From the NCBI GenBank assembly GCA_965656375.1, contig CBFHKH010000001.1:345319-409318 (forward strand): a stretch of 64,000 nucleotides of DNA, written 5' to 3'. The notes beneath the pieces are model-generated. The model worked only from the letters and a program-made list of their open reading frames with translations, did no database searches and was not told where the DNA came from. A program made the position numbers and the translations under genes. Shown piece after piece: positions 1 to 49,015 of the stretch (within the stretch, counting starts at the first letter, position 1; every line of letters starts with the position of its first letter). The DNA is from Minisyncoccia bacterium. Its GTDB lineage: Bacteria; Patescibacteriota; Minisyncoccia; Phycocordibacterales; UBA9973.

Positions 1-58
1 ATGAGATCAGCCAGTTTGTAAAAGACCTGGTAGGCTAAAAATTCTGCCAAAATCAAGA

Positions 59-88
59 AAAACGAGTGCATGTGCATTCGTTTTTTAT
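59..88. terminator. GC-poor hairpin (AAAAACGAGTGCA..TGCATTCGTTTTTT) with a T-run, probably terminating a gene left of the window
   Basis: Inverted repeat plus T-run read directly from the sequence. Confidence 0.35.
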
Positions 89-114
89 TTTGGAATATCT
101 GTTAAAATGGAGAT

Positions 115-366
115 ATGACGAGAAAACAACCCTCTAAAAGTCAGATTCATACACTTCCAACAGATGTAAAGAAAGCACTCGCCTCTGTTAAAAATGCGCA
201 GGCAGTGTGGGATGATATCACTCCCCTTGCTCGCAATGAATGGATATGTTGGATTACCTCAGGAAAAAAAGAAGAGACAAGAACTATCCGTATCAAAAAA
301 GCACTTTCAAAACTTTCTAGCGGCATGCGCCGTCCATGCTGCTGGGCTGGATGTACTCATCGATAG
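115..366 (+). CDS. YdeI/OmpD-associated family protein (PF13376-like)
   Basis: 83-aa ORF with a C-terminal ARNEWICWITSGKKEETR motif typical of the family; GGAG ribosome-binding site 4 nt upstream of the ATG. Confidence 0.55.
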   Translation: MTRKQPSKSQIHTLPTDVKKALASVKNAQAVWDDITPLARNEWICWITSGKKEETRTIRIKKALSKLSSGMRRPCCWAGCTHR

Positions 367-2727: not shown

Positions 2728-2955
2728 TTATCTTCCAATAAATAAATCAGCCACATTCTCAATTCCTGATGTTGTTGTTTTATATAGTTCTGTATAGCCA
2801 CATTGCATACAAGAAACAGTAACAAATTTATTAGTTTGGAGATTGAAGACTTTAGTCAAGAAACCTCCTGTTGTTGAAATTTTATCTAAGATATAAGTTG
2901 TATTCCCGCATTTAACACAAATGAAAGATTTCTTCTCATTAGTAGTATTCTCCAT
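2728..2955 (-). CDS. Zn-ribbon nucleic-acid-binding protein (DUF2082-like, two CxxC pairs)
   Basis: CVKCGNT...CMQCGY. ATG at 2953-2955 follows an extended -10 element (TGTTATAGT). Confidence 0.5.
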   Translation of the reverse strand: MENTTNEKKSFICVKCGNTTYILDKISTTGGFLTKVFNLQTNKFVTVSCMQCGYTELYKTTTSGIENVADLFIGR

Positions 2956-2973
2956 ATTGTAACTATAACATAG

Positions 2974-2996
2974 GTTCGAACTTGTATAAAGGTAGC
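2974..2996. repeat. intergenic repeat family copy (GGTTCGAACTTGTATAAAGGTAGC), adjacent to the extended -10 element of the Zn-ribbon gene
   Basis: See the copy at 2224. Confidence 0.6.
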
Positions 2997-3030
2997 AAAA
3001 ATATCCATTGAAAAATATGGTTAAAAGTTT

Positions 3031-3149
3031 TGCTCCTCGGGTAGGGTATCTCGGCTTACCGCCGCTGGTACTTTCTCGATTGCAAATCAATACGAGAAAG
3101 TCTTTCGATCCCTACACGAAAGCAAAGCAGTTTGCTTTCTCCGAGGAGC
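3031..3149 (-). ncRNA. E1: structured tRNA-flanked element. The terminal 9-bp helix GCUCCUCGG/CCGAGGAGC reuses the tRNA-Asn acceptor sequence, and there are two internal perfect hairpins
   Basis: Lies 50 nt 3' of tRNA-Asn. Its last 15 nt are identical to the tRNA-Asn 3' end. Homologous to E2 with compensatory helix changes. Confidence 0.45.
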
Positions 3150-3151
3150 TC

Positions 3152-3184
3152 AAAAAATCAAAGGCCACCATTTCTGGTGACCTA
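3152..3184 (-). terminator. intrinsic terminator of tRNA-Asn (AGGUCACCA-GAAA-UGGUGGCCU followed by a U-run)
   Basis: Hairpin with a GNRA loop followed by 6 U. Confidence 0.5.
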
Positions 3185-3197
3185 AGATTTTTGCGAG

Positions 3198-3269
3198 CTC
3201 CTCGGGTAGGGATCGAACCTACGACCAATCGATTAACAGTCGATTGCTCTACCGCTGAGCTACCGAGGA
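3198..3269 (-). tRNA. tRNA-Asn (anticodon GUU)
   Basis: Cloverleaf read by hand: acceptor TCCTCGG/CCGAGGA, anticodon loop CTGTTAA, T-arm GTAGG-TTCGATC-CCTAC. Confidence 0.9.
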
Positions 3270-3404
3270 ATACTGATATGTTCCCAGGAGAGATTGAACA
3301 CATTACGGTTACCTGGAAAACGAGTACAGTCTATCAAAAAACGACTCAAAATGCAAAAGAAAACCCTCCTTTAAAAAGAAGGGTTTTCTTGGGGATATTA
3401 GAGA

Positions 3405-3965
3405 TTAGTGACTTGCAACTGTATGAACATGATGTGCAGGCTTTCGTCCAAGCATACGAGCGATAATGATAATCACAAGTATCAGTAGTATTACCAGGAG
3501 CCACTGCCAAATAGAACTTGGCATAAATGAACCTGAACCATTTACAGAAAGTGCTGTGAGTTCACTTCTATTGTTAGTTGGGTAGAGGCTACCATATACC
3601 TGATTTTGTGGGACATTGTTTGAAGTGTTTACAGTACTATTTGTATTTGTTGTATTCGCACGTGCTACGGTACGTGTAGTTGTTGTACGATTCGTTGAAA
3701 CAGTCTTTGTAGGTGTCTGTGTTTGCGCAGGTGCTACAGTCTGAGTGTTATTAGTAGTGGTAACTGTGTTTGAATTCGTAGTTGTAGGCTGGACTGGAGT
3801 AGTGTACGCAGTAGAAACTGGAGTCGAAAATGTAGGATTGCTATTTACTGGACGCGGCTGCGGATCCCACACACCTGGTACATATGCTGATGCAGTTTGA
3901 AAACTCACAAGTAGTAATACTGCTGTTCCGGCTGCTATTAGGTTTTTGATTGTTTTATTATTCAT
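3405..3965 (-). CDS. secreted Thr/Asn-rich low-complexity protein with a C-terminal hydrophobic anchor
   Basis: Signal peptide MNNKTIKNLIAAGTAVLLLVSFQTASA, followed by a T/N/Q-rich region, then WQWLLVILLILVIIIIARMLGRK. Confidence 0.45.
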   Translation of the reverse strand: MNNKTIKNLIAAGTAVLLLVSFQTASAYVPGVWDPQPRPVNSNPTFSTPVSTAYTTPVQPTTTNSNTVTTTNNTQTVAPAQTQTPTKTVSTNRTTTTRTVARANTTNTNSTVNTSNNVPQNQVYGSLYPTNNRSELTALSVNGSGSFMPSSIWQWLLVILLILVIIIIARMLGRKPAHHVHTVASH

Positions 3966-4111: not shown

Positions 4112-5332
4112 ATGAATAATCCATTCCAAAACGCGATGCTCCAGCTTGATCGAGCAGTAAAAGTAAAGCCATTTAATGCTGAATTCCTATCAAGATTGCA
4201 CCAGCCAAATCGCGAAATCCGCATCTCTATACCAATCACCATGGATGATGGATCATTGAAAATTTTTGAAGGGTATCGTGTGCAATACAACAACGCACGC
4301 GGCCCATATAAAGGCGGTATACGCTATCATCAGGATACAGATATAAACGAGGTCAAAGCGCTCGCATTTTGGATGGCACTCAAATGCGCAGTTGCAAACA
4401 TTCCAATGGGTGGAGGCAAAGGCGGCATCACTGTAGATCCAAAGAAGCTTTCGAAGAGCGAACTTGAAAAACTTTCTCGCGGATGGATACAACTCATGGC
4501 TCCGGTTATTGGACCAGACGTTGATGTCCCCGCTCCTGATGTAAACACAACGGGTGAAATCATGGCATGGATGGTAGATGAATACTCAAAAATTACAGGC
4601 GACAAAACAAATGCTGTGATAACCGGAAAGCCGATCGAGGTTGGCGGCTCAGAAGGCCGAGGTCCGGCTACTGGACTTGGAGGATTTTATGTATTTGACT
4701 CTATCCGCCAAAAAATAGCTCTTCCCGACTCTTGTCGAGTAGTTATTCAAGGATTTGGTAATGTGGGCGGTAATGCTGCAGAAATCCTATCAAAGAACGG
4801 ACATACAATCATCGCACTCTCTGACTCGAAAGGAGCAATTCTAAAGGAAGATGGGATCGATATTGCTGAGCTAAACGAATATAAAAAGGAGCATGGCCAA
4901 ATCGGCGGCTTTCCAGGATCTACAATGATCACAAACGAAGCACTTCTTCTCCTTGAATGCGATGTGCTCATTCCTGCAGCACTCGAGAACCAAATCACAG
5001 AAGAAAATGCAAATAATATAAAAGCAAAGCTTGTGCTTGAACTTGCAAACGGCCCTACAACTCCAGAAGCAGATGACATACTCTTCGATCGCGGCATTCC
5101 TGTTATTCCTGATATTCTTGCGAATGCCGGTGGAGTTACTGTTTCTACATTTGAATGGGAGCAAAATAGAAAAGGTGAACATTGGAGCGAAGCTGAAGTA
5201 TTTCAAAAACTAAAGAAAATAATGGATGAGGAAACTGACATGATATTCAACCGCTCTAAAGAATTGGGTACGGATATCCGAAGAGCAGCTTTTGTTGTCG
5301 CACTCGAGCGTATTGAACAAGCAACAAAATAA
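4112..5332 (+). CDS. gdhA: NAD(P)-dependent glutamate dehydrogenase (Glu/Leu/Phe/Val dehydrogenase family)
   Basis: GGIRYH...MALKCAVANIPMGGGKGG motifs; 406 aa. Confidence 0.9.
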   Translation: MNNPFQNAMLQLDRAVKVKPFNAEFLSRLHQPNREIRISIPITMDDGSLKIFEGYRVQYNNARGPYKGGIRYHQDTDINEVKALAFWMALKCAVANIPMGGGKGGITVDPKKLSKSELEKLSRGWIQLMAPVIGPDVDVPAPDVNTTGEIMAWMVDEYSKITGDKTNAVITGKPIEVGGSEGRGPATGLGGFYVFDSIRQKIALPDSCRVVIQGFGNVGGNAAEILSKNGHTIIALSDSKGAILKEDGIDIAELNEYKKEHGQIGGFPGSTMITNEALLLLECDVLIPAALENQITEENANNIKAKLVLELANGPTTPEADDILFDRGIPVIPDILANAGGVTVSTFEWEQNRKGEHWSEAEVFQKLKKIMDEETDMIFNRSKELGTDIRRAAFVVALERIEQATK

Positions 5333-5339
5333 ATATTCT

Positions 5340-7898
5340 ATGCCACGAATAACACAAAAAAAGAATATTCGGCTTGTTCCCCATGTGCGACCAGAGCGAT
5401 ATACCCTCACCATCAAGCCTGACCTCGAAGCATTTATATTTGAAGGTAAAGAAATCATATCGATAATCTTGGATAAGTCACTCCGTGCGATCACACTTCA
5501 CTCAAAAGATATCAAGATCCATACCGTAGAAATACACTCTGGTAAAGAAAGTCAGTTTGCAACAAAGATCACATATGACACTAAAAATGAAACTGCCACA
5601 TTCACTTTCAAACAACCCATCAAAAAAGGAAAAGCGAAGCTTTCACTTGTCTTTGAAGGAATCATAAGTGATACTCTTCGCGGGTTCTACCGGAGTCGAT
5701 ATACAATCGAAGGAAAAACTCGCCATTTGGCAACAACGCAATTTGAAGCAACAGATGCAAGGCGTGCATTTCCATGCTTTGATGAACCTGCGCAAAAAGC
5801 AATTTTCGACGTATCACTTATCGTTCCTGGTGATCATACTGCAATATCGAATACCCTGCCGACTCGTATACGCGAGCATGAAGGTGGATATAAGGTTATT
5901 GAATTTGCATCCACTCCTCGAATGTCCACATATCTACTCGCATTTATCATCGGCGAGTTTGAATACGTCGAAGGATATACAAAAGACAAAGTCCAGGTAC
6001 GGGTGTTCACAACGATAGGAAAGAAGCACCAGGCACAATTCGCACTCGACGTCGCAATTAAATCACTTGAATTCTATAACGAATATTTCAATATTCCCTA
6101 TCCACTTCCTGTACTCGATATGATTGCAATTCCAGACTTTGAGTCGGGAGCCATGGAGAACTGGGGCGCGATCACCTATCGAGAAACAGCTCTCTTAGTA
6201 GACAAGAATAATTCTTCCCTTTCCAACAAGCAGTGGGTAGCTGTCGTCGTTGCCCATGAGATCGCTCACCAATGGTTTGGTAACCTTGTGACTATGGAAT
6301 GGTGGACGGATCTGTGGCTCAATGAAGGATTTGCATCATATATGGAGAATCTCTGCACCGATCATATATTCCCCGAGTGGCGTATGTGGGATTTATACCT
6401 AGCCGATCGATATGCAGTAGCCCTACGCCTCGACGCACTTGCAAATTCGCATCCTATAGAAGTTACGGTACATCATCCAAATGAAATAAGTGAGATATTT
6501 GATATGGTCTCATATGCAAAAGGCTCTGCAGTGATACGCATGATTGCAGAATATGTAGGAGCGGAAAAATTCCGTGATGGATTACGTCACTATTTAAAAA
6601 AACATAGTTACAAAAATACAGTGACAACTGACCTCTGGCATTCATTTGAGAAAGCAAGCGGTAAACCTGTGAAAAAAATGATGGAATCATGGACAAAGAA
6701 AACTGGCTACCCGCTCGTTACGCTTTTACGTGGTAAAAATGGGTACAGCGCAAAGCAAGAACGGTTCTTTTCAAGCAGAATTTCTGCAAAAAAAAGTACG
6801 ACAACTACCGTATGGCAAATTCCATTCAAATATGAAAGTGATGCAGGATCCCACACTGTTCTTGCTACAGGAAAGTCTATCTCGCTCACAGGTAATTCAA
6901 TCGGAAAAATAAACCTAAACGAGGGTTCATTTATGCGAACTCGCTACGATTCAGCCACTCTTGAACATCTGAAAAGTAAGGTACTAAAAAATACTCTTGA
7001 TGTAAAAGACAGACTTGGGCTCATACGTGATTTATTCGCCCTCGCAGAAGGTGGCTATATTAAAGTAGTTGATGCCCTAGAATTCTCACGTGCATATAAA
7101 AATGAAAAGGAATATATCGTCTGGTCTGAGATCGCAAGTGGTATACAAAGAATCTACAACCTCATTTCTGACGAACCATTTACGGATACCTATAGAGCAT
7201 ACGCGCGTTCACTCTTCACACCACTTGCAGAACGTATGACCTTTGAAAAGAAAAAGGGTGAAGATCACTCAGATACATTTCTTCGTTCACTGGCACTTTC
7301 ACAAGCCGCATTCTATGGCGATGAGCGAGTAATTAAAAAAGCGCGCTCACTCTTTACAAAAATGAAGTCTCACCCAATACCTGCTGATATACGAAGCGTC
7401 GTATATACGATCGTCGCCCAAAATGGTGGAAAAAAAGAATATAATGCATTCATGAATCTATTTTTAAATGAAGAACTTCATGAAGAAAAAGATCGCTATG
7501 GTCGCGCACTCACTTCATTTAGAGATAAAACACTCCTTGCTCGAACGCTTATGTTTGCTCTCTCAAAGGATGTACGCACTCAAGATGCACCATATATGCT
7601 TGCTGCTGTATGGCAAAATACCACTGGACGAGATCTCGCATGGAAATTCATACAGCACAACTGGAAAATAATTCTTGCTCGTTATGGCGAGGGAGGATTT
7701 ATTTCGCGAATGCTTACTCCGCTCGGTAGTCATACCAAAACAAATGATGCAGTATATGCAAAGAAATTCTTTTCAAAAAATCTTGCCCCGGGAGCAGAAC
7801 GTACACTCGAACAAGCCTACGAACGAATTTTATCTAATGCGTTGTGGCTGAAAACTGACAAAACAAGTATTAAAAACTGGCTTCATAACAACTACTAA
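5340..7898 (+). CDS. pepN: aminopeptidase N (M1 family)
   Basis: GAMENWG, HEIAHQWFGN and WLNEGFASY motifs. The ATG at 5340 (MPRITQ) is preferred over the upstream TTG in the track. Confidence 0.9.
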   Translation: MPRITQKKNIRLVPHVRPERYTLTIKPDLEAFIFEGKEIISIILDKSLRAITLHSKDIKIHTVEIHSGKESQFATKITYDTKNETATFTFKQPIKKGKAKLSLVFEGIISDTLRGFYRSRYTIEGKTRHLATTQFEATDARRAFPCFDEPAQKAIFDVSLIVPGDHTAISNTLPTRIREHEGGYKVIEFASTPRMSTYLLAFIIGEFEYVEGYTKDKVQVRVFTTIGKKHQAQFALDVAIKSLEFYNEYFNIPYPLPVLDMIAIPDFESGAMENWGAITYRETALLVDKNNSSLSNKQWVAVVVAHEIAHQWFGNLVTMEWWTDLWLNEGFASYMENLCTDHIFPEWRMWDLYLADRYAVALRLDALANSHPIEVTVHHPNEISEIFDMVSYAKGSAVIRMIAEYVGAEKFRDGLRHYLKKHSYKNTVTTDLWHSFEKASGKPVKKMMESWTKKTGYPLVTLLRGKNGYSAKQERFFSSRISAKKSTTTTVWQIPFKYESDAGSHTVLATGKSISLTGNSIGKINLNEGSFMRTRYDSATLEHLKSKVLKNTLDVKDRLGLIRDLFALAEGGYIKVVDALEFSRAYKNEKEYIVWSEIASGIQRIYNLISDEPFTDTYRAYARSLFTPLAERMTFEKKKGEDHSDTFLRSLALSQAAFYGDERVIKKARSLFTKMKSHPIPADIRSVVYTIVAQNGGKKEYNAFMNLFLNEELHEEKDRYGRALTSFRDKTLLARTLMFALSKDVRTQDAPYMLAAVWQNTTGRDLAWKFIQHNWKIILARYGEGGFISRMLTPLGSHTKTNDAVYAKKFFSKNLAPGAERTLEQAYERILSNALWLKTDKTSIKNWLHNNY

Positions 7899-20381: not shown

Positions 20382-20465
20382 ACTATATATGATATCAAAT
20401 GCATATTTTGTTCACAACATAAAATGAAAAACACCCTGCTTTGGACAAGGCGTCTTTCATATAAT

Positions 20466-20870
20466 GATTTGTACCTATAAGCCGAATTCTGTACTCCGAC
20501 GCAAGGTCGGAGCGATAGATATTTATCTAGGCTTCTCGTTACCAAGAGGCTCAAGCGACTCTCCCCGACTATAACGTCGGGGCACGGTCTTGCACACACG
20601 TAAGGATTTAGCTCCGACGCCCTTTCGGGGTCGGAGAGCCGACAGAATCGTCGGCTCCGTTTCACCTAAAGAGTTACCTCAATAGCTTATCCCATGGGGA
20701 TATCCTACCCTTTCGGGATTAGACGTCTCTGCTCGCACCTCTACCGTTGCCGGCGACGGGCGTTACCCGCTACGGACCCACTGACCATGCCTGCGCAGGC
20801 AGGTTGCTCAGTGATATGTGTTCGGACTTTCCTCACTCAAGTTACCTCGAGCGCATCTATCCAATACAAA
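20466..20870 (-). ncRNA. rnpB: RNase P RNA, bacterial type A
   Basis: GAGGAAAGUCCGAAC (P4), GGUAACGCC, UAGGUGAAACGG, UUGAGCC...GCCUAGAUAAAU and ACAGAAUUCGGCUUAUAGGUAC blocks are colinear with E. coli M1 RNA; own promoter TTGTCA-17-TATACT. Confidence 0.85.
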
Positions 20871-20877
20871 CCGAACT

Positions 20878-20929
20878 GAGTATATCAGACAATGTTCTTC
20901 TTGACAATTGCATTTTATTTTGCTATACT
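20878..20929. promoter_or_regulatory. back-to-back divergent sigma70-like promoters with overlapping -35 elements. Minus strand: TTGTCA-17-TATACT for rnpB. Plus strand: TTGACA(20901)-17-TATACT(20924) for a short transcript
   Basis: Consensus hexamers read directly from the sequence. Confidence 0.5.
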
Positions 20930-20935
20930 CTTTAT

Positions 20936-21021
20936 GTGAGTAACGAATTCCAGTAATAAAATATTATTTATTACACAATTGCCTATCAAAACCCCCGAGC
21001 AATCGGGGGTTTTGTGTTTTT
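20936..21021 (+). ncRNA. candidate small RNA of about 85 nt, from the consensus plus-strand promoter to the intrinsic terminator AAAACCCCCG-AGCAATC-GGGGGUUUU plus a U-run
   Basis: Consensus promoter plus terminator with no ORF between them; contains an AT-rich hairpin GUAAUAAA/UUUAUUAC. Confidence 0.35.
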
Positions 21022-21133
21022 CGAGATGTAGTATATACTTATTCCATAGCAGTCGTTGTGTGTTCCAGTCAGCGGCTGCACTCACATAGGCAATTGTGTT
21101 GGAGTTTAGCACCCGCTGACTTGAGCACATAAG

Positions 21134-21162
21134 TAAAAATCCTTGAATAATTCAAGGATTTT
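21134..21162 (-). terminator. hairpin AAAATCCTTGAA-TAA-TTCAAGGATTTT 3' of the 202-aa gene
   Basis: Perfect 12-bp stem. Confidence 0.5.
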
Positions 21163-21167
21163 TATAA

Positions 21168-21776
21168 TTACTTTTTGAAGCGAATTGCTGGCTCATTGTA
21201 ATAAAACAATCGGGATAAATAATTCCACTCAATTGAAACTTCCTTTTTATAATCTAAAGATAGATATGCAACCATTAAATCGTCAGAACATTTTTTTACT
21301 GATTTCCATAAATACACACGATTATCAGTACCAAATGCATTGGCAAAGAATTTTCCACCTTTAAATTGAATAGCTACTCCATCGGATAAACCCATACATA
21401 GTTTAATTTCCCCTGTATCAACCAGATGTGTATAAATATCCTTTCCTAGAACTGTGAGCCTAGGTTTCTGATCTTCGTGACGCCAAAGTTCTGTTTCACC
21501 GAGATCATACTCCACTGGACCATTTTCAAACTCTAGTTCAGGATTAAACCTCTTATCTATACCCTTTGGAACATCTTTTAGGTTAATAGTAAAATCAAAA
21601 AGCCCTATTACTTTTTGAAAACCCCAACGATTTACATTCTCTAAATCTGCATCCAGCAAATCAGAAAATAGACCTGTGGTAAAAAGAAGATTGAATTTTT
21701 CCAGACTAGTTTTTTTCTGGTTAATTAAATTTAGCAACTGTAGTGCCTGGCCTAATGACGGTTTAGTATTGCTCAT
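21168..21776 (-). CDS. hypothetical protein of 202 aa
   Basis: ORF with an ATG start; no family recognised. Confidence 0.45.
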   Translation of the reverse strand: MSNTKPSLGQALQLLNLINQKKTSLEKFNLLFTTGLFSDLLDADLENVNRWGFQKVIGLFDFTINLKDVPKGIDKRFNPELEFENGPVEYDLGETELWRHEDQKPRLTVLGKDIYTHLVDTGEIKLCMGLSDGVAIQFKGGKFFANAFGTDNRVYLWKSVKKCSDDLMVAYLSLDYKKEVSIEWNYLSRLFYYNEPAIRFKK

Positions 21777-21845
21777 AATCTTAAATTATTAAGCGCTATT
21801 CCTTGCGGATAGCATACTGCTTTCTCCTCTCTTCAAAATGAAGTG

Positions 21846-21901
21846 GTTTGCCACAGTTTTCAATTCTCAATCTAGTCAAAGACCTGAAAACTGTGGCAAA
21901 C
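21846..21901. promoter_or_regulatory. 16-bp perfect inverted repeat (GTTTGCCACAGTTTTC ... GAAAACTGTGGCAAAC) with a 24-nt loop, in the leader or promoter region of the 202-aa gene
   Basis: Read directly from the sequence. Confidence 0.4.
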
Positions 21902-21957
21902 TTCTACAGATAAGGAATTTAAATTGAGATTACCACAAAAAATATGTTATGTCAAAA

Positions 21958-21988
21958 AACAAAAACACCCTTTCGGGTGTTTTTTGTC
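21958..21988 (-). terminator. intrinsic terminator of the 16S transcription unit (AAAAACACCC-UUUC-GGGUGUUUUUUG)
   Basis: Stem plus U-run about 200 nt 3' of the 16S gene. Confidence 0.5.
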
Positions 21989-22182
21989 TTGTAATAAAAT
22001 AGGTTGCAATATAATGAAGAGTTAAAATAAAATATCTTTTCTTTTGTTCCGTTCTAGGGGTCTTTCCCTCCTTGTCAGATTTCTTTTAGGACAAAAATCA
22101 TTGTCCATTGTGTAGTCAATTGAGCTACACAATATCGACGCCGTAAATTTTATATTTCCGAAGAAGATATAAAACTGATTCA

Positions 22183-23717
<1,535 letters not shown>

Positions 23718-23954
23718 CTAAAAAATAGAACGGAACAAAAGAAAAAACATTTATTCCTTGCCTGCATTTTTACATGCAGACTAACTGGTGCCTCACAGTT
23801 GCACCTGGAGGACTTTCTTCACCAAACCGATTGTGATTAGCATTGGTTTGGCTAGCCTGTTTCTATAGATACTATAGTCACAGGACTTACTATGATTGCA
23901 TACCTATTCTCTTATCAAAGAAATACAGCCCAATAAGTTACCGGACTGTGGGTT

Positions 23955-24097: not shown

Positions 24098-24170
24098 GCC
24101 CTGTTAGCTCAGCTGGTAGAGCAGCTCCCTCTTAAGGAGATGGTCGGGGGTTCGATTCCCTCACGGGGCA
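24098..24170 (+). tRNA. tRNA-Lys (anticodon CUU), followed by a terminator hairpin
   Basis: Acceptor GCCCTGT/ACGGGGC, anticodon loop CTCTTAA, T-loop TTCGATT. Confidence 0.85.
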
Positions 24171-24200
24171 CAATAAAAAAATCCTCAATTGAGGATTTTT

Positions 24201-25172
24201 TTATTTCTTTTTCAATAACTTCGACAAACTTTTCATAAACGCCTTGATCGAAGCATCATCATAAAGTGATAGCGTAAGTACTGGCTTACCAAGCTTTTCG
24301 AATTCTTTTATTTTTTTATCTATAGTCTTTTGATCAGTCACATCAGTCTTCGTGAGAACAATTACTTCTTTCTTTTCTAGCATTGATTTGTCATACGCAC
24401 CGAGCTCTTTACGGATTTGTTTATAGACTTTCATCATGTCTTTGTCATTCTCAAATGACACGAGATGTGCGAGCATTTCTGTACGCTTTGTGTGTTTTAA
24501 AAATTTGATACCGAGACCCTTTCCTTCTGATGCTCCTTCGATGAGACCTGGAATATCTGCAATAATCTTGCCATAAAAATCTCCAAGATTCGGATCAAGA
24601 GTCGTGAATTGATATGATCCAATCTTTGCTTGAGCATTGGTCACCGCATTCAAAAGTGAAGACTTCCCTGCATTTGGGAGGCCGATAAGTCCGATATCAG
24701 CAAAAAGTTCGAGCTCAATTTTAAAGTGACCTTGCTCGCCAGGCTTTCCTTTTGTAGCCTTGGTTGGAGTCGTATTAATAGAAGTTTTAAACTGCTCATT
24801 TCCCCAACCACCCAAACCACCTTTGAGAAGCAATTCTTTTTGCCCTGGTGTATCAAGCGAGACTGAAGCATCATTTTCTATATTTGTAATTATAGAACCG
24901 ACTGGAAGCTGTATGATAAGATCTTTACCATCTTTACCATGCTTACTGCCTCCCATTCCAGGCTCACCAGGTGATGATTTGAATTCCTTCTGATGTTTGT
25001 ATTTTGAAAGTAAGTTAATATCAGAGACTGCAACTGCAAAAATACTGCCACCTCGGCCGCCATCGCCACCGTTCGGACCACCTTTGTCTATGAATTTCTC
25101 ACGGCGCCAACGAACAACCCCGTCTCCCCCGCGGCCAGCCTGTGCATGAATTGTAATTTCATCTATAAACAT
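24201..25172 (-). CDS. obg: GTPase Obg/CgtA
   Basis: MFIDEITIHAQAGRGGDGVVRWRREKF, Gly-rich N-terminal domain and G1-G4 motifs; start taken at the internal MFIDE methionine. Confidence 0.9.
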   Translation of the reverse strand: MFIDEITIHAQAGRGGDGVVRWRREKFIDKGGPNGGDGGRGGSIFAVAVSDINLLSKYKHQKEFKSSPGEPGMGGSKHGKDGKDLIIQLPVGSIITNIENDASVSLDTPGQKELLLKGGLGGWGNEQFKTSINTTPTKATKGKPGEQGHFKIELELFADIGLIGLPNAGKSSLLNAVTNAQAKIGSYQFTTLDPNLGDFYGKIIADIPGLIEGASEGKGLGIKFLKHTKRTEMLAHLVSFENDKDMMKVYKQIRKELGAYDKSMLEKKEVIVLTKTDVTDQKTIDKKIKEFEKLGKPVLTLSLYDDASIKAFMKSLSKLLKKK

Positions 25173-30249: not shown

Positions 30250-30738
30250 TTAGCATGAACGAGTCATGCATACTGGCTGACTGTATGTCATCGGATTGTA
30301 GTAGTTGCTAGAGTAATTCTGACCCTGATACCATCCTTGTGATGGAGATACTACACCGTATCCGTACCCACTGTTGTATGAACTACATGGGTTGTATCCA
30401 CATGTGCTATATACAGGATAAACATCATAGTACTGGTTACAGCCATAGTCACAGTAGTCATCATAACCACCGTATCCATATCCGTAATCATTGTAACCAT
30501 AGTTACTATAGCCACAATCATTGTAATACTGACAATCATCGTATCCATACCCATAATCGTCGTAACCGCCATACTCATCGTAGCCATATCCATTGTTATA
30601 GCCACCATTACCAAAACCAAGGCCTAAGCTTATTGAGAAATTATCCCAAAATGAAGCTTCTGACTTTGTAGGCATGACGAAAAGTCCGAGAACAAACATA
30701 CTGATAATAATTGAAAATGTTGCGATTCCTTTTTTCAT
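30250..30738 (-). CDS. secreted Tyr/Gly/Asp-rich low-complexity protein with 8 Cys
   Basis: Signal peptide MKKGIATFSIIISMFVLGLFVMPTKSEA followed by (Y/G/D/N)-rich repeats; the antisense His-rich ORFs are artefacts. Confidence 0.5.
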   Translation of the reverse strand: MKKGIATFSIIISMFVLGLFVMPTKSEASFWDNFSISLGLGFGNGGYNNGYGYDEYGGYDDYGYGYDDCQYYNDCGYSNYGYNDYGYGYGGYDDYCDYGCNQYYDVYPVYSTCGYNPCSSYNSGYGYGVVSPSQGWYQGQNYSSNYYNPMTYSQPVCMTRSC

Positions 30739-30759
30739 AATAGGCGTATTATACACCTT

Positions 30760-31563: not shown

Positions 31564-31637
31564 TTGGGGATCGTCTAATGGTAGGACAGCGGCCTTTGAA
31601 GCCGTTAATTGGGGTTCGAATCCCTGTCCCCAAGCCA
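31564..31637 (+). tRNA. tRNA-Gln (anticodon UUG), with CCA encoded
   Basis: Acceptor TTGGGGA/TCCCCAA, 3-bp D-stem, anticodon loop CTTTGAA, T-arm TGGGG-TTCGAAT-CCCTG. Confidence 0.85.
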
Positions 31638-31660
31638 AAAAATCACGCAGTAATTTTTGC

Positions 31661-31837
31661 TTGGGGAAGCAACTAAACTGCTTTAGTTGCGTCAGGGATT
31701 CGAAAGACTTTTCTGTCATTTGGTTACAAATGCAGAAAAGTACCTGGCTACGTGGTAGCCGAAAAGCGTACTCGCGGTCCTTGTTCTTAAAAGGTGTACT
31801 GATCCTGTAAGGATCGAAATTCCCTGTCCCCAAGCCA
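31661..31837 (+). ncRNA. E2: structured tRNA-flanked element. Begins TTGGGGA (the tRNA-Gln 5' acceptor strand) and ends CCCTGTCCCCAAGCCA (an exact copy of the tRNA-Gln 3' end); contains the hairpins GCAACUAAA-CUGC-UUUAGUUGC and CUUUUCUG...CAGAAAAG
   Basis: Lies 24 nt 3' of tRNA-Gln; colinear with E1, with compensatory changes in both helices; conserved GGGAUUCGAAAGAC linker. Confidence 0.45.
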
Positions 31838-48936: not shown

Positions 48937-49015
48937 AGGTCCTATTTTAGCATGTTTTTACTCTGTTGAAAAATGAAAAAACTCATCATATATGATGAGT
49001 TTTTTCATTTTTTTG

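Follow-up and report, generated by a model that had tools for sequence, protein, structure and literature searches.

tRNA-linked elements in the analysed window

The subject of this report is a pair of folded, non-coding elements, E1 and E2, found in a stretch of 64,000 nucleotides (nt) from a Minisyncoccia bacterium of the Patescibacteriota (assembly GCA_965656375.1, contig CBFHKH010000001.1, positions 345,319 to 409,318; hereafter the window). E1 follows a tRNA-Asn gene and E2 a tRNA-Gln gene (Table 1). Both belong to a family of structured elements of 110 to 190 nt that lie immediately 3' of tRNA and transfer-messenger RNA (tmRNA) genes, on the same strand, and that are closed by helices carrying the sequence of the tail of the neighbouring gene. 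This large family of Patescibacteria apparently has no prior description.

Table 1. Coordinates in the window of the two host tRNA genes, the spacer and the parts of E1 and E2.
Feature	Position	Strand	Remarks
tRNA-Asn (GTT), host gene of E1	3197-3269	-	ARAGORN; Rfam tRNA, 71.9 bits
Spacer between tRNA-Asn and E1	3152-3183	-	hairpin 3183-3162 and U-run 3161-3152; terminator-like
E1, 119-base folded element	3031-3149	-	
E1 P1 5' strand, GCUCCUCGG	3141-3149	-	reverse complement of tRNA-Asn 66-74 (acceptor 3' strand, discriminator, C74)
E1 hairpin 1, stem of 7-9 bp, conserved loop AACUGCUU	3118-3139	-	between the two antisense arms; covariation
E1 P2 5' strand, GUAGGGAUC	3107-3115	-	reverse complement of tRNA-Asn 57-65 (3' part of T loop, 3' strand of T stem)
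E1 junction GAAAGA, within motif CGAAAGAC	3101-3106	-	at three-way junction; invariant alignment columns, partly imposed by the search pattern
E1 hairpin 2	3071-3100	-	folds; outer stem covaries
E1 junction UACC(A), within motif AAGUACC	3066-3070	-	invariant in alignments
E1 hairpin 3 (CGGC-GGUAA-GCCG)	3052-3064	-	family position with conserved GUA loop
E1 P2 3' strand	3041-3050	-	
E1 P1 3' strand	3032-3040	-	
tRNA-Gln (TTG), host gene of E2	31564-31637	+	CCA encoded; ARAGORN, Rfam
E2, long-form paralogue of E1	31659-31837	+	
E2 P1 5' strand	31659-31667	+	
E2 hairpin 1	31669-31690	+	
E2 P2 5' strand	31693-31701	+	
E2 GAAAGA	31702-31707	+	
E2 hairpin 2	31708-31740	+	
E2 UACC	31741-31744	+	
E2 hairpin 3	31746-31760	+	
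E2, two extra GUAC modules	31762-31815	+	
E2 P2 3' strand	31816-31826	+	
E2 P1 3' strand	31827-31835	+	followed by CA

The tRNA-Asn gene does not encode CCA; both arms of E1 derive from its final 21 nt (tRNA positions 54-74). The element starts with GCUCCUCGG, complementary to the tRNA-Asn 3' end, and ends with CCCUACCCGAGGAGC. Its 5' side is an antisense arm, an inverted copy of those 21 nt that hairpin 1 splits exactly at the boundary between acceptor and T stem; the GAA that follows the P2 5' strand is complementary to tRNA positions 54-56. Its 3' side (3050 to 3032, GAU-A-CCCUAC CCGAGGAGC) repeats tRNA-Asn 57-74 in direct orientation; it contains one additional A and agrees exactly over its last 15 nt. 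Searched at up to 3 mismatches, the 15-mer CCCTACCCGAGGAGC occurs twice in the 64 kb, at the tRNA end (3211-3197) and at the end of E1 (3046-3032). A third copy of the tRNA-Asn tail is present neither in the window nor in the 5.9 kb beyond it, for which reason we rejected a larger island bounded by such a copy. The predicted fold of E1 has a free energy of -58.8 kcal/mol, against -30.5 +/- 3.7 kcal/mol for shuffled sequences (z = -7.6; none of 200 shuffles was as good), and that of E2 has z = -6.4.

The spacer ahead of E1 has the make-up of an intrinsic terminator, a GC-rich hairpin of 9 bp with a GAAA loop (AGGUCACCA-GAAA-UGGUGGCCU) followed by UUGAUUUUUU, with the U-run TTGATTTTTT directly after position 3162. 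The stem of this hairpin can be extended, the tRNA-Asn 3' strand (3205-3197) pairing with the 5' strand of E1 (3149-3141), into a hairpin of -47.8 kcal/mol. No promoter-like site was found between terminator and E1, and E1 could be made only by read-through. At the other locus, the gap between tRNA-Gln and E2 contains a weak A/U hairpin and no real terminator. E2 ends in an exact 17-nt copy of the tRNA-Gln end, CCA included (the 17-mer TCCCTGTCCCCAAGCCA occurs twice), and its arms track tRNA-Gln in the same way as those of E1 track tRNA-Asn, the T loops being AUUCGAA for E2 and GAUCGAA for E1. nhmmer aligns the two elements colinearly (E = 4.6e-5), and they are the only matches in the window to a covariance model made from relatives (99.3 bits for E1, 93.9 bits for E2); we conclude that they are paralogues of one family.

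A preliminary description of the E1 locus, made from the sequence of the window, had already given the order tRNA-Asn, terminator, E1 on the minus strand, on which ARAGORN, Rfam and the terminator-like call agree; it had also seen the 15-nt exact copy of the tRNA-Asn 3' end and the colinearity of E1 with E2, both of which are borne out by the searches above, and its reading of the sequence of E1 is exact. Its suggestion that, with a terminator in between, E1 is likely transcribed or regulated independently finds no such backing, given that no promoter-like site is present and that many relatives, E2 included, lack a real terminator between tRNA and element.

Two tRNA genes of the window, tRNA-Lys and tRNA-Tyr, are without an element. 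Beside them (24172-24210 and 48975-49014) are long palindromic terminators flanked by A/T runs that end exactly at the tRNA end. Such a bare pair of tRNA and terminator appears to be the state onto which the P1 5' strand of the element is added in occupied loci.

Distribution of the family

Three conserved motifs common to E1 and E2 were combined into a search pattern, which, applied to a single genome from each species, gave at least 118 genome loci. Among the matches listed, nearly all are from Patescibacteria (Paceibacteria/Parcubacteria, Saccharibacteria, Nomura-, Vogel- and Lloydbacteria), and several loci per genome are common, for instance 8 copies in the metagenome-assembled genome (MAG) JBBRWS. 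A covariance model built from 30 short-form copies then gave 129 + 22 matches in the genome loci. Pattern and model together found more than 150 copies in Patescibacteria genomes. At the six sites in other phyla that fit the pattern the model found nothing, and these six behave like products of chance. Part of the invariance of the motifs in this set of copies is imposed by the search pattern, since the loop of hairpin 1 differs in more divergent variants. In the sampled loci, which were chosen for containing a copy, an element is present at about half of the tRNA genes. The viral contigs of IMG/VR gave zero hits, and a phage origin was rejected on this ground. No Rfam 15 family matches the element, either at gathering thresholds over the whole window or at E <= 10 locally (2950-3350), and in the literature searched we found no paper describing it; the searches returned work on Patescibacteria tRNA genes with group I introns and on TIGR-Tas.

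The arms repeat the end of the neighbouring tRNA

Among the matches listed, 95 of 120 pattern-type copies lie at most 260 nt downstream of a tRNA gene on the same strand, and the host tRNAs represent at least 30 anticodons. The remaining 25 comprise 3 copies after tmRNA, 8 at the edge of a locus, 2 after ends with T arm and acceptor that ARAGORN does not call, and about 12 true orphans with tRNA-like arms. In the family the 3' strand repeats the tRNA from G57 to C74, and the 5' strand is antisense to positions 74-54, usually to the genomic tRNA end and not to the CCA-tailed form. The match is specific to the tRNA at hand: the P2 5' strand fits its own tRNA in 89 of the 95 copies, with 8 or 9 of 9 positions agreeing (9 % against other tRNAs); for the 3' copy, 40 copies reach 13 or 14 of 14 (2 of 910 comparisons with other tRNAs), and for the P1 5' strand, 34 reach 9 of 9 (5 of 910). 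The direct repeat begins sharply at C56/G57, is often 20-25 nt long and takes in a few bases of the trailer. As with att-type direct repeats, a block of tRNA 3' sequence is found on both sides of the presumed insert, of 15 nt for E1, 17 nt for E2 and up to 25 nt in relatives.

The origin of the 5' arms can be read from tRNA stems that contain G.U pairs, where the reverse complement of the 3' strand and the tRNA 5' strand differ. The arms follow the former by 19 to 2 in the T stem and by 12 to 3 in the acceptor stem, and the element is therefore not a tRNA paralogue. In the three copies behind tRNA-Ala the G3.U70 pair is lost in one (L057), kept in another (L067) and altered in the third (L120), which has neither form. 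The notion in the preliminary description of an element adopting the tRNA identity of its neighbour finds no support: the 5' arms are not copies of the 5' half of the tRNA, G3.U70 can disappear, P1 is optional and there is no T loop. Its conclusion that coincidence is unlikely does stand, on the own-tRNA matches of P2 and of the 3' copy given above.

By the same evidence E1 is hardly a second tRNA-Asn gene or a decayed tRNA pseudogene, a reading that we regard as refuted and leave with a negligible probability. The ends of E1 do resemble an acceptor stem and a T stem, but of the six tRNAs that ARAGORN calls in the window none lies at either element, the Rfam tRNA model has no hit in E1 at E <= 10, D arm, anticodon arm and T loop are all missing, the 5' arms are not copies of the 5' half of a tRNA, and the same core stands behind at least 30 anticodons among the matches listed. 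A special link to the tRNAs of transamidation (E1 being behind Asn, E2 behind Gln) was likewise rejected because of this number of anticodons. So was a tie to an encoded CCA, an idea suggested by loci L144 and L156: CCA is encoded in 10 of 95 tRNA genes with an element and in 11 of 91 without.

Several host loci depart from the usual tRNA gene. Where the host gene is a tmRNA (in L068, 1462-2013, minus strand, and likewise in L048 and L066), the arms agree with its T arm and acceptor end (…CCCGCCATCTCCAC). The ends that ARAGORN does not call are in L063, about 70 nt upstream of an element at 57-188 (minus strand), with a tRNA-Asp-like tail, and in L115, upstream of an element at 3422-3542 (minus strand); they may belong to intron-containing tRNA-Asp/Asn genes as reported for Patescibacteria (PMC13011429). 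Three further elements have tRNA-Ser arms and no tRNA upstream (L015, ~4740-4990; L017, ~150-400; L103, ~3620-3865). They share a conserved upstream block consisting of an extended -10-like TGCTAgAAT, about 50 nt ending in GAGTACACCGC, and a terminator, which may be a free-standing small RNA unit driven by its own promoter.

Structure of the core and of the closing helices

The core has a constant order: hairpin 1 with loop AACUGCUU, CGAAAGAC, hairpin 2, AAGUACC and hairpin 3, sometimes followed by extra GUAC modules. Long forms such as E2 carry additional modules of this type, and at a tRNA-Asn locus of Vogelbacteria (L112) a two-module form is present. Pairing was scored on spliced 73-nt excerpts from 27 relatives. 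In hairpin 1 all cells (100 %) are paired and all 7 pairs have double, compensatory changes; in P2, 97.9 % are paired and 6 of 9 pairs covary; in P1 the value is 66 %, the helix being perfect in E1 and E2. The acceptor-like helix P1 is optional across the family, its 3' strand copy being missing in 45 of the 95 copies, and it includes the discriminator and C74 as base-paired positions. Residues derived from the T loop are paired in P2, and a three-way junction stands in place of the T loop.

The mismatches differ between core and arms. G.U exceeds A.C by 16 to 3 in hairpin 1 and by 36 to 11 in hairpin 2, so it is the tRNA-sense strand that is structured. The mismatches of P1 and P2 are strand-symmetric, with G.U about as frequent as A.C, as would be expected if a once perfect inverted repeat had decayed. 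The two patterns fit arms copied at the DNA level and a core under selection for its structure as a single strand.

The spacing between tRNA and element also varies. In about 19 of the 95 copies the element follows the tRNA directly, with an exact 3' copy of 20-25 nt and a weak P1 5' strand. About 64 copies have a palindromic, terminator-like spacer, which joins the tRNA 3' strand to the P1 5' strand in one long, near-perfect hairpin, and 28 of these 64 retain only the T-stem part of the 3' copy. Elements can be arranged in tandem or mixed arrays, with a period of 150 nt in L089, two subfamilies behind one tRNA-Ser in L025 and three units in L068. In the last of these (5582-6120, plus strand) the three units and two palindromic terminators stand behind one tRNA-Ile, which ARAGORN calls as TAT; the 5' arm of the third unit, TGGTCCGCCCT, is complementary to a CCA-tailed tRNA end, CCA not being encoded there but encoded at the related locus L016.

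When tRNA and element are folded together, the predicted fold of minimum free energy is strand-swapped in 30 of 39 loci, both window loci included (for tRNA-Asn and E1, -124.0 against -109.4 kcal/mol). In the swapped fold the 5' strands of the tRNA pair with the 3' copy of the element and the true 3' part of the tRNA pairs with the antisense arms, a topology equal to that of a tRNA with a large insertion in its T loop. A T-loop intron-like arrangement or a cis-acting ribozyme could be seen in this: in read-through RNA the core would cleave, or cleave and ligate, so that tRNA 3' ends are processed or exchanged, the true 3' part being held by the antisense arms and the 3' copy completing the cloverleaf. 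It would agree with the reach of the antisense arm over positions 54-56, and hence over the 56/57 junction, and with a compact junction that has invariant nucleotides and resembles small ribozymes. The swap nevertheless follows automatically from the repeated sequences and is by itself not evidence of use, the upstream tRNA is intact and needs no splicing, the extra A in the copy of E1 would make a T loop of 8 nt, and many copies have a terminator ahead of them. No known ribozyme family (hammerhead, twister, pistol, hatchet, hepatitis delta virus and others) matches at E <= 10 within 2950-3350. We hold this arrangement to be very unlikely. A hammerhead-like reading of the 7/4/1-nt junction, and resemblances to T-box, K-turn, box C/D, retron and omega-RNA, were dismissed after inspection by eye gave no fit and Rfam none at E <= 10.

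The same arms invite a comparison with dual-strand guide RNAs. An antisense and a sense segment of 9 nt each could together pair both strands of one 18-bp site (57-74) in tRNA-gene DNA, in the manner of the tigRNA of TIGR-Tas or the bridge RNA of IS110. TIGR systems, which occur in parasitic bacteria, have just this geometry of two 9-nt spacers directed at opposite strands of an 18-bp target (PMC12045711). In the element, however, each arm is the full complement of the other, and the two pair as helices, not open loops (see the pairing of P2 above). Box C/D motifs are lacking, none of the 118 loci among the matches listed has a Tas or IS110 gene next to the element, and such a guide would also target the host locus of the element itself. 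We regard the dual-strand guide as highly improbable.

Turnover, duplication and genomic neighbourhood

The preliminary description had proposed a comparison of the tRNA-Asn locus in related genomes for presence or absence of the element. Among relatives with GDH/tRNA-Asn synteny the element is present in L133 and L134 (with a 3' type other than that of E1), decayed in L152 and absent from L144 and L156. Presence is patchy, and no clean empty-site pair was found, the DNA beyond the tRNA in all five loci being unrelated to that of the window. The borders of an insertion cannot be fixed in this way because the element-free relatives differ in all of the downstream DNA. The tRNA 3' side is a synteny breakpoint. 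Synteny through the downstream Zn-ribbon gene was also tried and abandoned, its 9 homologues being in other contexts with no tRNA nearby.

Duplication within a genome is seen in MAG CAZWJJ, where a 112-nt core is present behind tRNA-Arg(GCG) and again behind tRNA-Arg(TCT), with 4 mismatches (about 97 % identity). The identity starts 3 nt before hairpin 1 and stops just after hairpin 3, and the two tRNAs have the same T arm. Cores of about 90 % identity are also found behind different tRNAs in different lineages, and core similarity is higher between different tRNAs of the same genome (0.437) than between the same tRNA of different genomes (0.363).

No recurrent neighbour protein family was found in the 8-kb loci (at most 11 of the 118 among the matches listed, and these were housekeeping genes), and a Pfam search of 10 uncharacterised open reading frames (ORFs) of the window gave no recombinase, reverse transcriptase or protein with a Nop domain. 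One locus, L058 (1546-4440), has an element with tRNA-Lys(CTT) arms at 2.7 kb from its tRNA-Lys; the gap contains a fragment of an IS3-type transposase and ORFs of unknown function, for which reason an island seems to have been inserted between the tRNA and its element.

These data bear on the possibility that the elements are scars or miniature derivatives of integrase-mobilised elements, similar to cis-mobilizable elements (CIMEs), the repeat being attL/attR of a tyrosine integrase and the core a remnant of attP. According to Williams (Nucleic Acids Research, 2002), integration sites in tRNA and tmRNA genes reportedly involve a repeat of about 20 nt from the T loop to the 3' end. The repeat of our elements has this same extent, tmRNA is also used, tandem accretion and a synteny breakpoint 3' of the tRNA are both observed, and the L058 island would suit the idea as well. 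On the other hand there is no integrase nearby in the 118 loci among the matches listed, nor among the uncharacterised ORFs of the window; the elements have 110-190 nt and no cargo; one and the same core accompanies about 30 different tRNAs, with a matching repeat in every case; and neither an inverted arm nor covarying hairpins are features of att sites. We consider an att scar improbable.

Some observations concern the assemblies and the window at large. In MAG JANOFO01, two contigs break, one at its start (locus L012) and one at its end (locus L077), inside tRNA-Gln-type elements that are 100 % identical, and it appears that the repeated element interrupts short-read assemblies. The window has a lone 16S rRNA gene (22183-23723) with no 23S or 5S gene beside it (region 20462-23723 on the minus strand and 24098-24171 on the plus strand); its neighbours are tRNA-Lys and an RNase P RNA that barely exceeds the Rfam threshold (110.6 against 100 bits). 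This unlinked layout is that of a small Patescibacteria genome. An ORF of 168 aa (30250-30756, minus strand) has an N-terminal hydrophobic segment and consists for the rest almost entirely of G/Y/D/N repeats (GYGYDEYGGYDDYGYGYDD...); its product looks like an unusual, secreted low-complexity protein.

Origin and possible role of the elements

The main rival to the reading that we favour is a small RNA of the host, which would be co-transcribed with the tRNA, excised by the enzymes of tRNA processing (RNase P cutting at the acceptor-like P1, and RNase Z or exonucleases at the 3' copy), and active through its core in tRNA 3'-end metabolism or in some other process. The constant placement on the tRNA strand would agree with this, as would the direct junction of tRNA and element in some 19 of 95 copies, the want of a promoter-like site for E1 and of a real terminator ahead of E2, the strong covariation of hairpins 1 to 3 with their invariant loops and junctions, the excess of G.U over A.C on the sense strand, and a conservation of the core across lineages that is close to the level of tRNA. 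The dicistronic tRNA-snoRNA genes of plants, cited in PMC12045711, set a precedent for the maturation of small RNAs out of tRNA transcripts. What a host RNA would leave unexplained is the presence of the neighbour's sequence in the closing helices, since any helix would close the fold. P1 is moreover optional, presence is patchy with decayed copies even at one orthologous tRNA, arrays mix subfamilies behind a single tRNA, and many loci have an apparently efficient terminator ahead of the element. A host small RNA would thus explain the core but not the arms or the turnover, and we think it somewhat unlikely.

Structure alone gives no reason for a closing helix to equal the sequence of its neighbour, and this sequence is therefore best explained by the way in which copies arise. 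The sharp borders of the repeat, the strand-symmetric decay of the arms, the arrays, the patchy presence and the decayed copies, together with the near-identical pair of CAZWJJ cores behind two tRNAs with the same T arm, lead us to favour, tentatively and with somewhat less than even confidence, a non-autonomous insertion element that is duplicative and targets tRNA 3' ends by means of a base-pairing arm. The antisense arm, chiefly its part complementary to the T loop and to the 3' strand of the T stem, would serve as a guide to the segment from T loop to 3' end; this T-arm part of the putative guide is nearly universal across copies. Insertion would duplicate that segment, the 3' strand of the element being the duplicated target, and would leave the host tRNA intact. 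The conserved core might act as scaffold or catalyst for the spread, served by a factor encoded elsewhere, and movement would pass through an intermediate that could be RNA, single-stranded DNA or a circle. Retargeting would take place by insertion at a near-cognate tRNA, followed by a compensatory change of the guide.

Several points weigh against an insertion element. No recombinase, reverse transcriptase or nuclease partner was identified in the 118 loci listed or among the 10 window ORFs, and the IMG/VR viral contigs gave no hits that could serve as vector. A simple target-site duplication fails, because copies with a terminator spacer have the repeat 30-45 nt from the core, and no known transposition chemistry accounts for the inverted arm. 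The duplicated core in L051 comes without the expected right-hand repeat, and a clean empty-site pair is wanting, as said above. An RNA selected by the host would agree just as well with the high conservation of the core, with compensatory changes between paralogues (L039) and with an orientation that is always that of the tRNA. Finally, some associations between subfamily and tRNA recur across genomes, one type of hairpin 3 being found mostly with tRNA-Ser; these could be due to vertical descent.

A bolder version of the insertion element, which we find unlikely, would be a programmable mobile unit made of structured RNA. Its core of about 100 nt would find the segment from T loop to 3' end of any tRNA or tmRNA gene by the antisense arm, insert next to it and re-template both closing strands from the target, whether on its own, by ribozyme chemistry or a circular intermediate, or by a putative enzyme of Patescibacteria that accepts a base-paired, dual-strand guide.

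The genomes of Patescibacteria are among the smallest and most streamlined of bacterial genomes, yet the element is frequent at the tRNA genes of the sampled loci, all chosen for containing a copy. If it is mobile, its way of choosing and copying a target, with arms in both orientations equal to the local tRNA tail, has no described counterpart among transposons, introns and integrative elements and could point to a new chemistry of RNA- or hairpin-guided recombination. If it is a host RNA, it would be a new tRNA-linked class specific to a major bacterial phylum. Either way, it accounts for extra tRNA-like fragments and for assembly breaks beside tRNA genes in these MAGs, and the covariance model is ready for use in annotation.

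Comparison with known systems

We rate the element as outside the kinds described so far: it fails at least one defining test of each system with which it was compared. Retroviral and retrotransposon primer-binding sites likewise contain a segment that is the complement of the last 18-21 nt at the 3' end of a specific tRNA; in the element, this segment is interrupted by hairpin 1 and masked by the sense copy, and there is no linked reverse transcriptase. Group I introns (with their internal guide sequences) and group II introns (with exon- and intron-binding sites, EBS/IBS) are similar in being structured RNAs with a segment complementary to the host flank, for which retargeting requires a change of guide, and group I introns are common in tRNA genes of Patescibacteria (PMC13011429). 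The element is far too small for such an intron, leaves the tRNA uninterrupted and carries a sense copy of the target; the intron covariance models do not match E1 at E <= 10, and the upstream tRNA is complete.

Integron attC sites share with the element imperfect palindromes, the precedence of stem structure over sequence, a strand-specific branch or extrahelical feature, and arrays. They differ in their R/L box consensus, integron integrase and cassette ORFs, none of which accompany the element, the apical part of which is highly conserved in sequence; the sequence of its stem is that of the target gene. tRNA-like domains, such as the tRNA-like domain (TLD) of tmRNA, the viral tRNA-like structures (TLS) and the bacterial Y RNA YrlA, and also the external guide sequences of RNase P, resemble the element in the coaxial stacking of an acceptor-like and a T-stem-like closing helix, which could be cleavable by RNase P or RNase Z. 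The element differs from these by having no T loop or D-loop mimic, an acceptor-like helix that is optional, a discriminator and C74 that are paired, and identity elements that, like G3.U70 in L057, can be lost.

Short repeats of bacterial genomes come into view next: miniature inverted-repeat transposable elements (MITEs), repetitive extragenic palindromic sequences (REP) and bacterial interspersed mosaic elements (BIME), the palindrome-associated transposable elements (PATEs) of IS200/IS605, Correia elements and Rickettsia palindromic elements (RPE). Like these, the element is short, multi-copy, intergenic, non-coding and strongly folding, decays, and is presumably co-transcribed with its neighbours and variable between strains. 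In the proposed reading it would also resemble IS200/IS605 in recognising the target by base pairing with an internal guide, which would have 9-21 nt instead of the 4 nt of IS200/IS605-type elements. MITE- and REP-type repeats have the same terminal repeats in all copies and short, fixed targets, whereas the arms of the element differ from locus to locus and track the local tRNA.

With the integrative elements of tRNA and tmRNA genes and the CIMEs, finally, the element has in common the site at the 3' end of the gene, the direct repeat from T loop to 3' end, the intact host gene, tandem accretion and synteny breakpoints. It differs in its size of 110-190 nt, in lacking integrase and cargo, and in having an extra, inverted copy of the target, a core of covarying hairpins, and a single family that serves about 30 tRNA targets.

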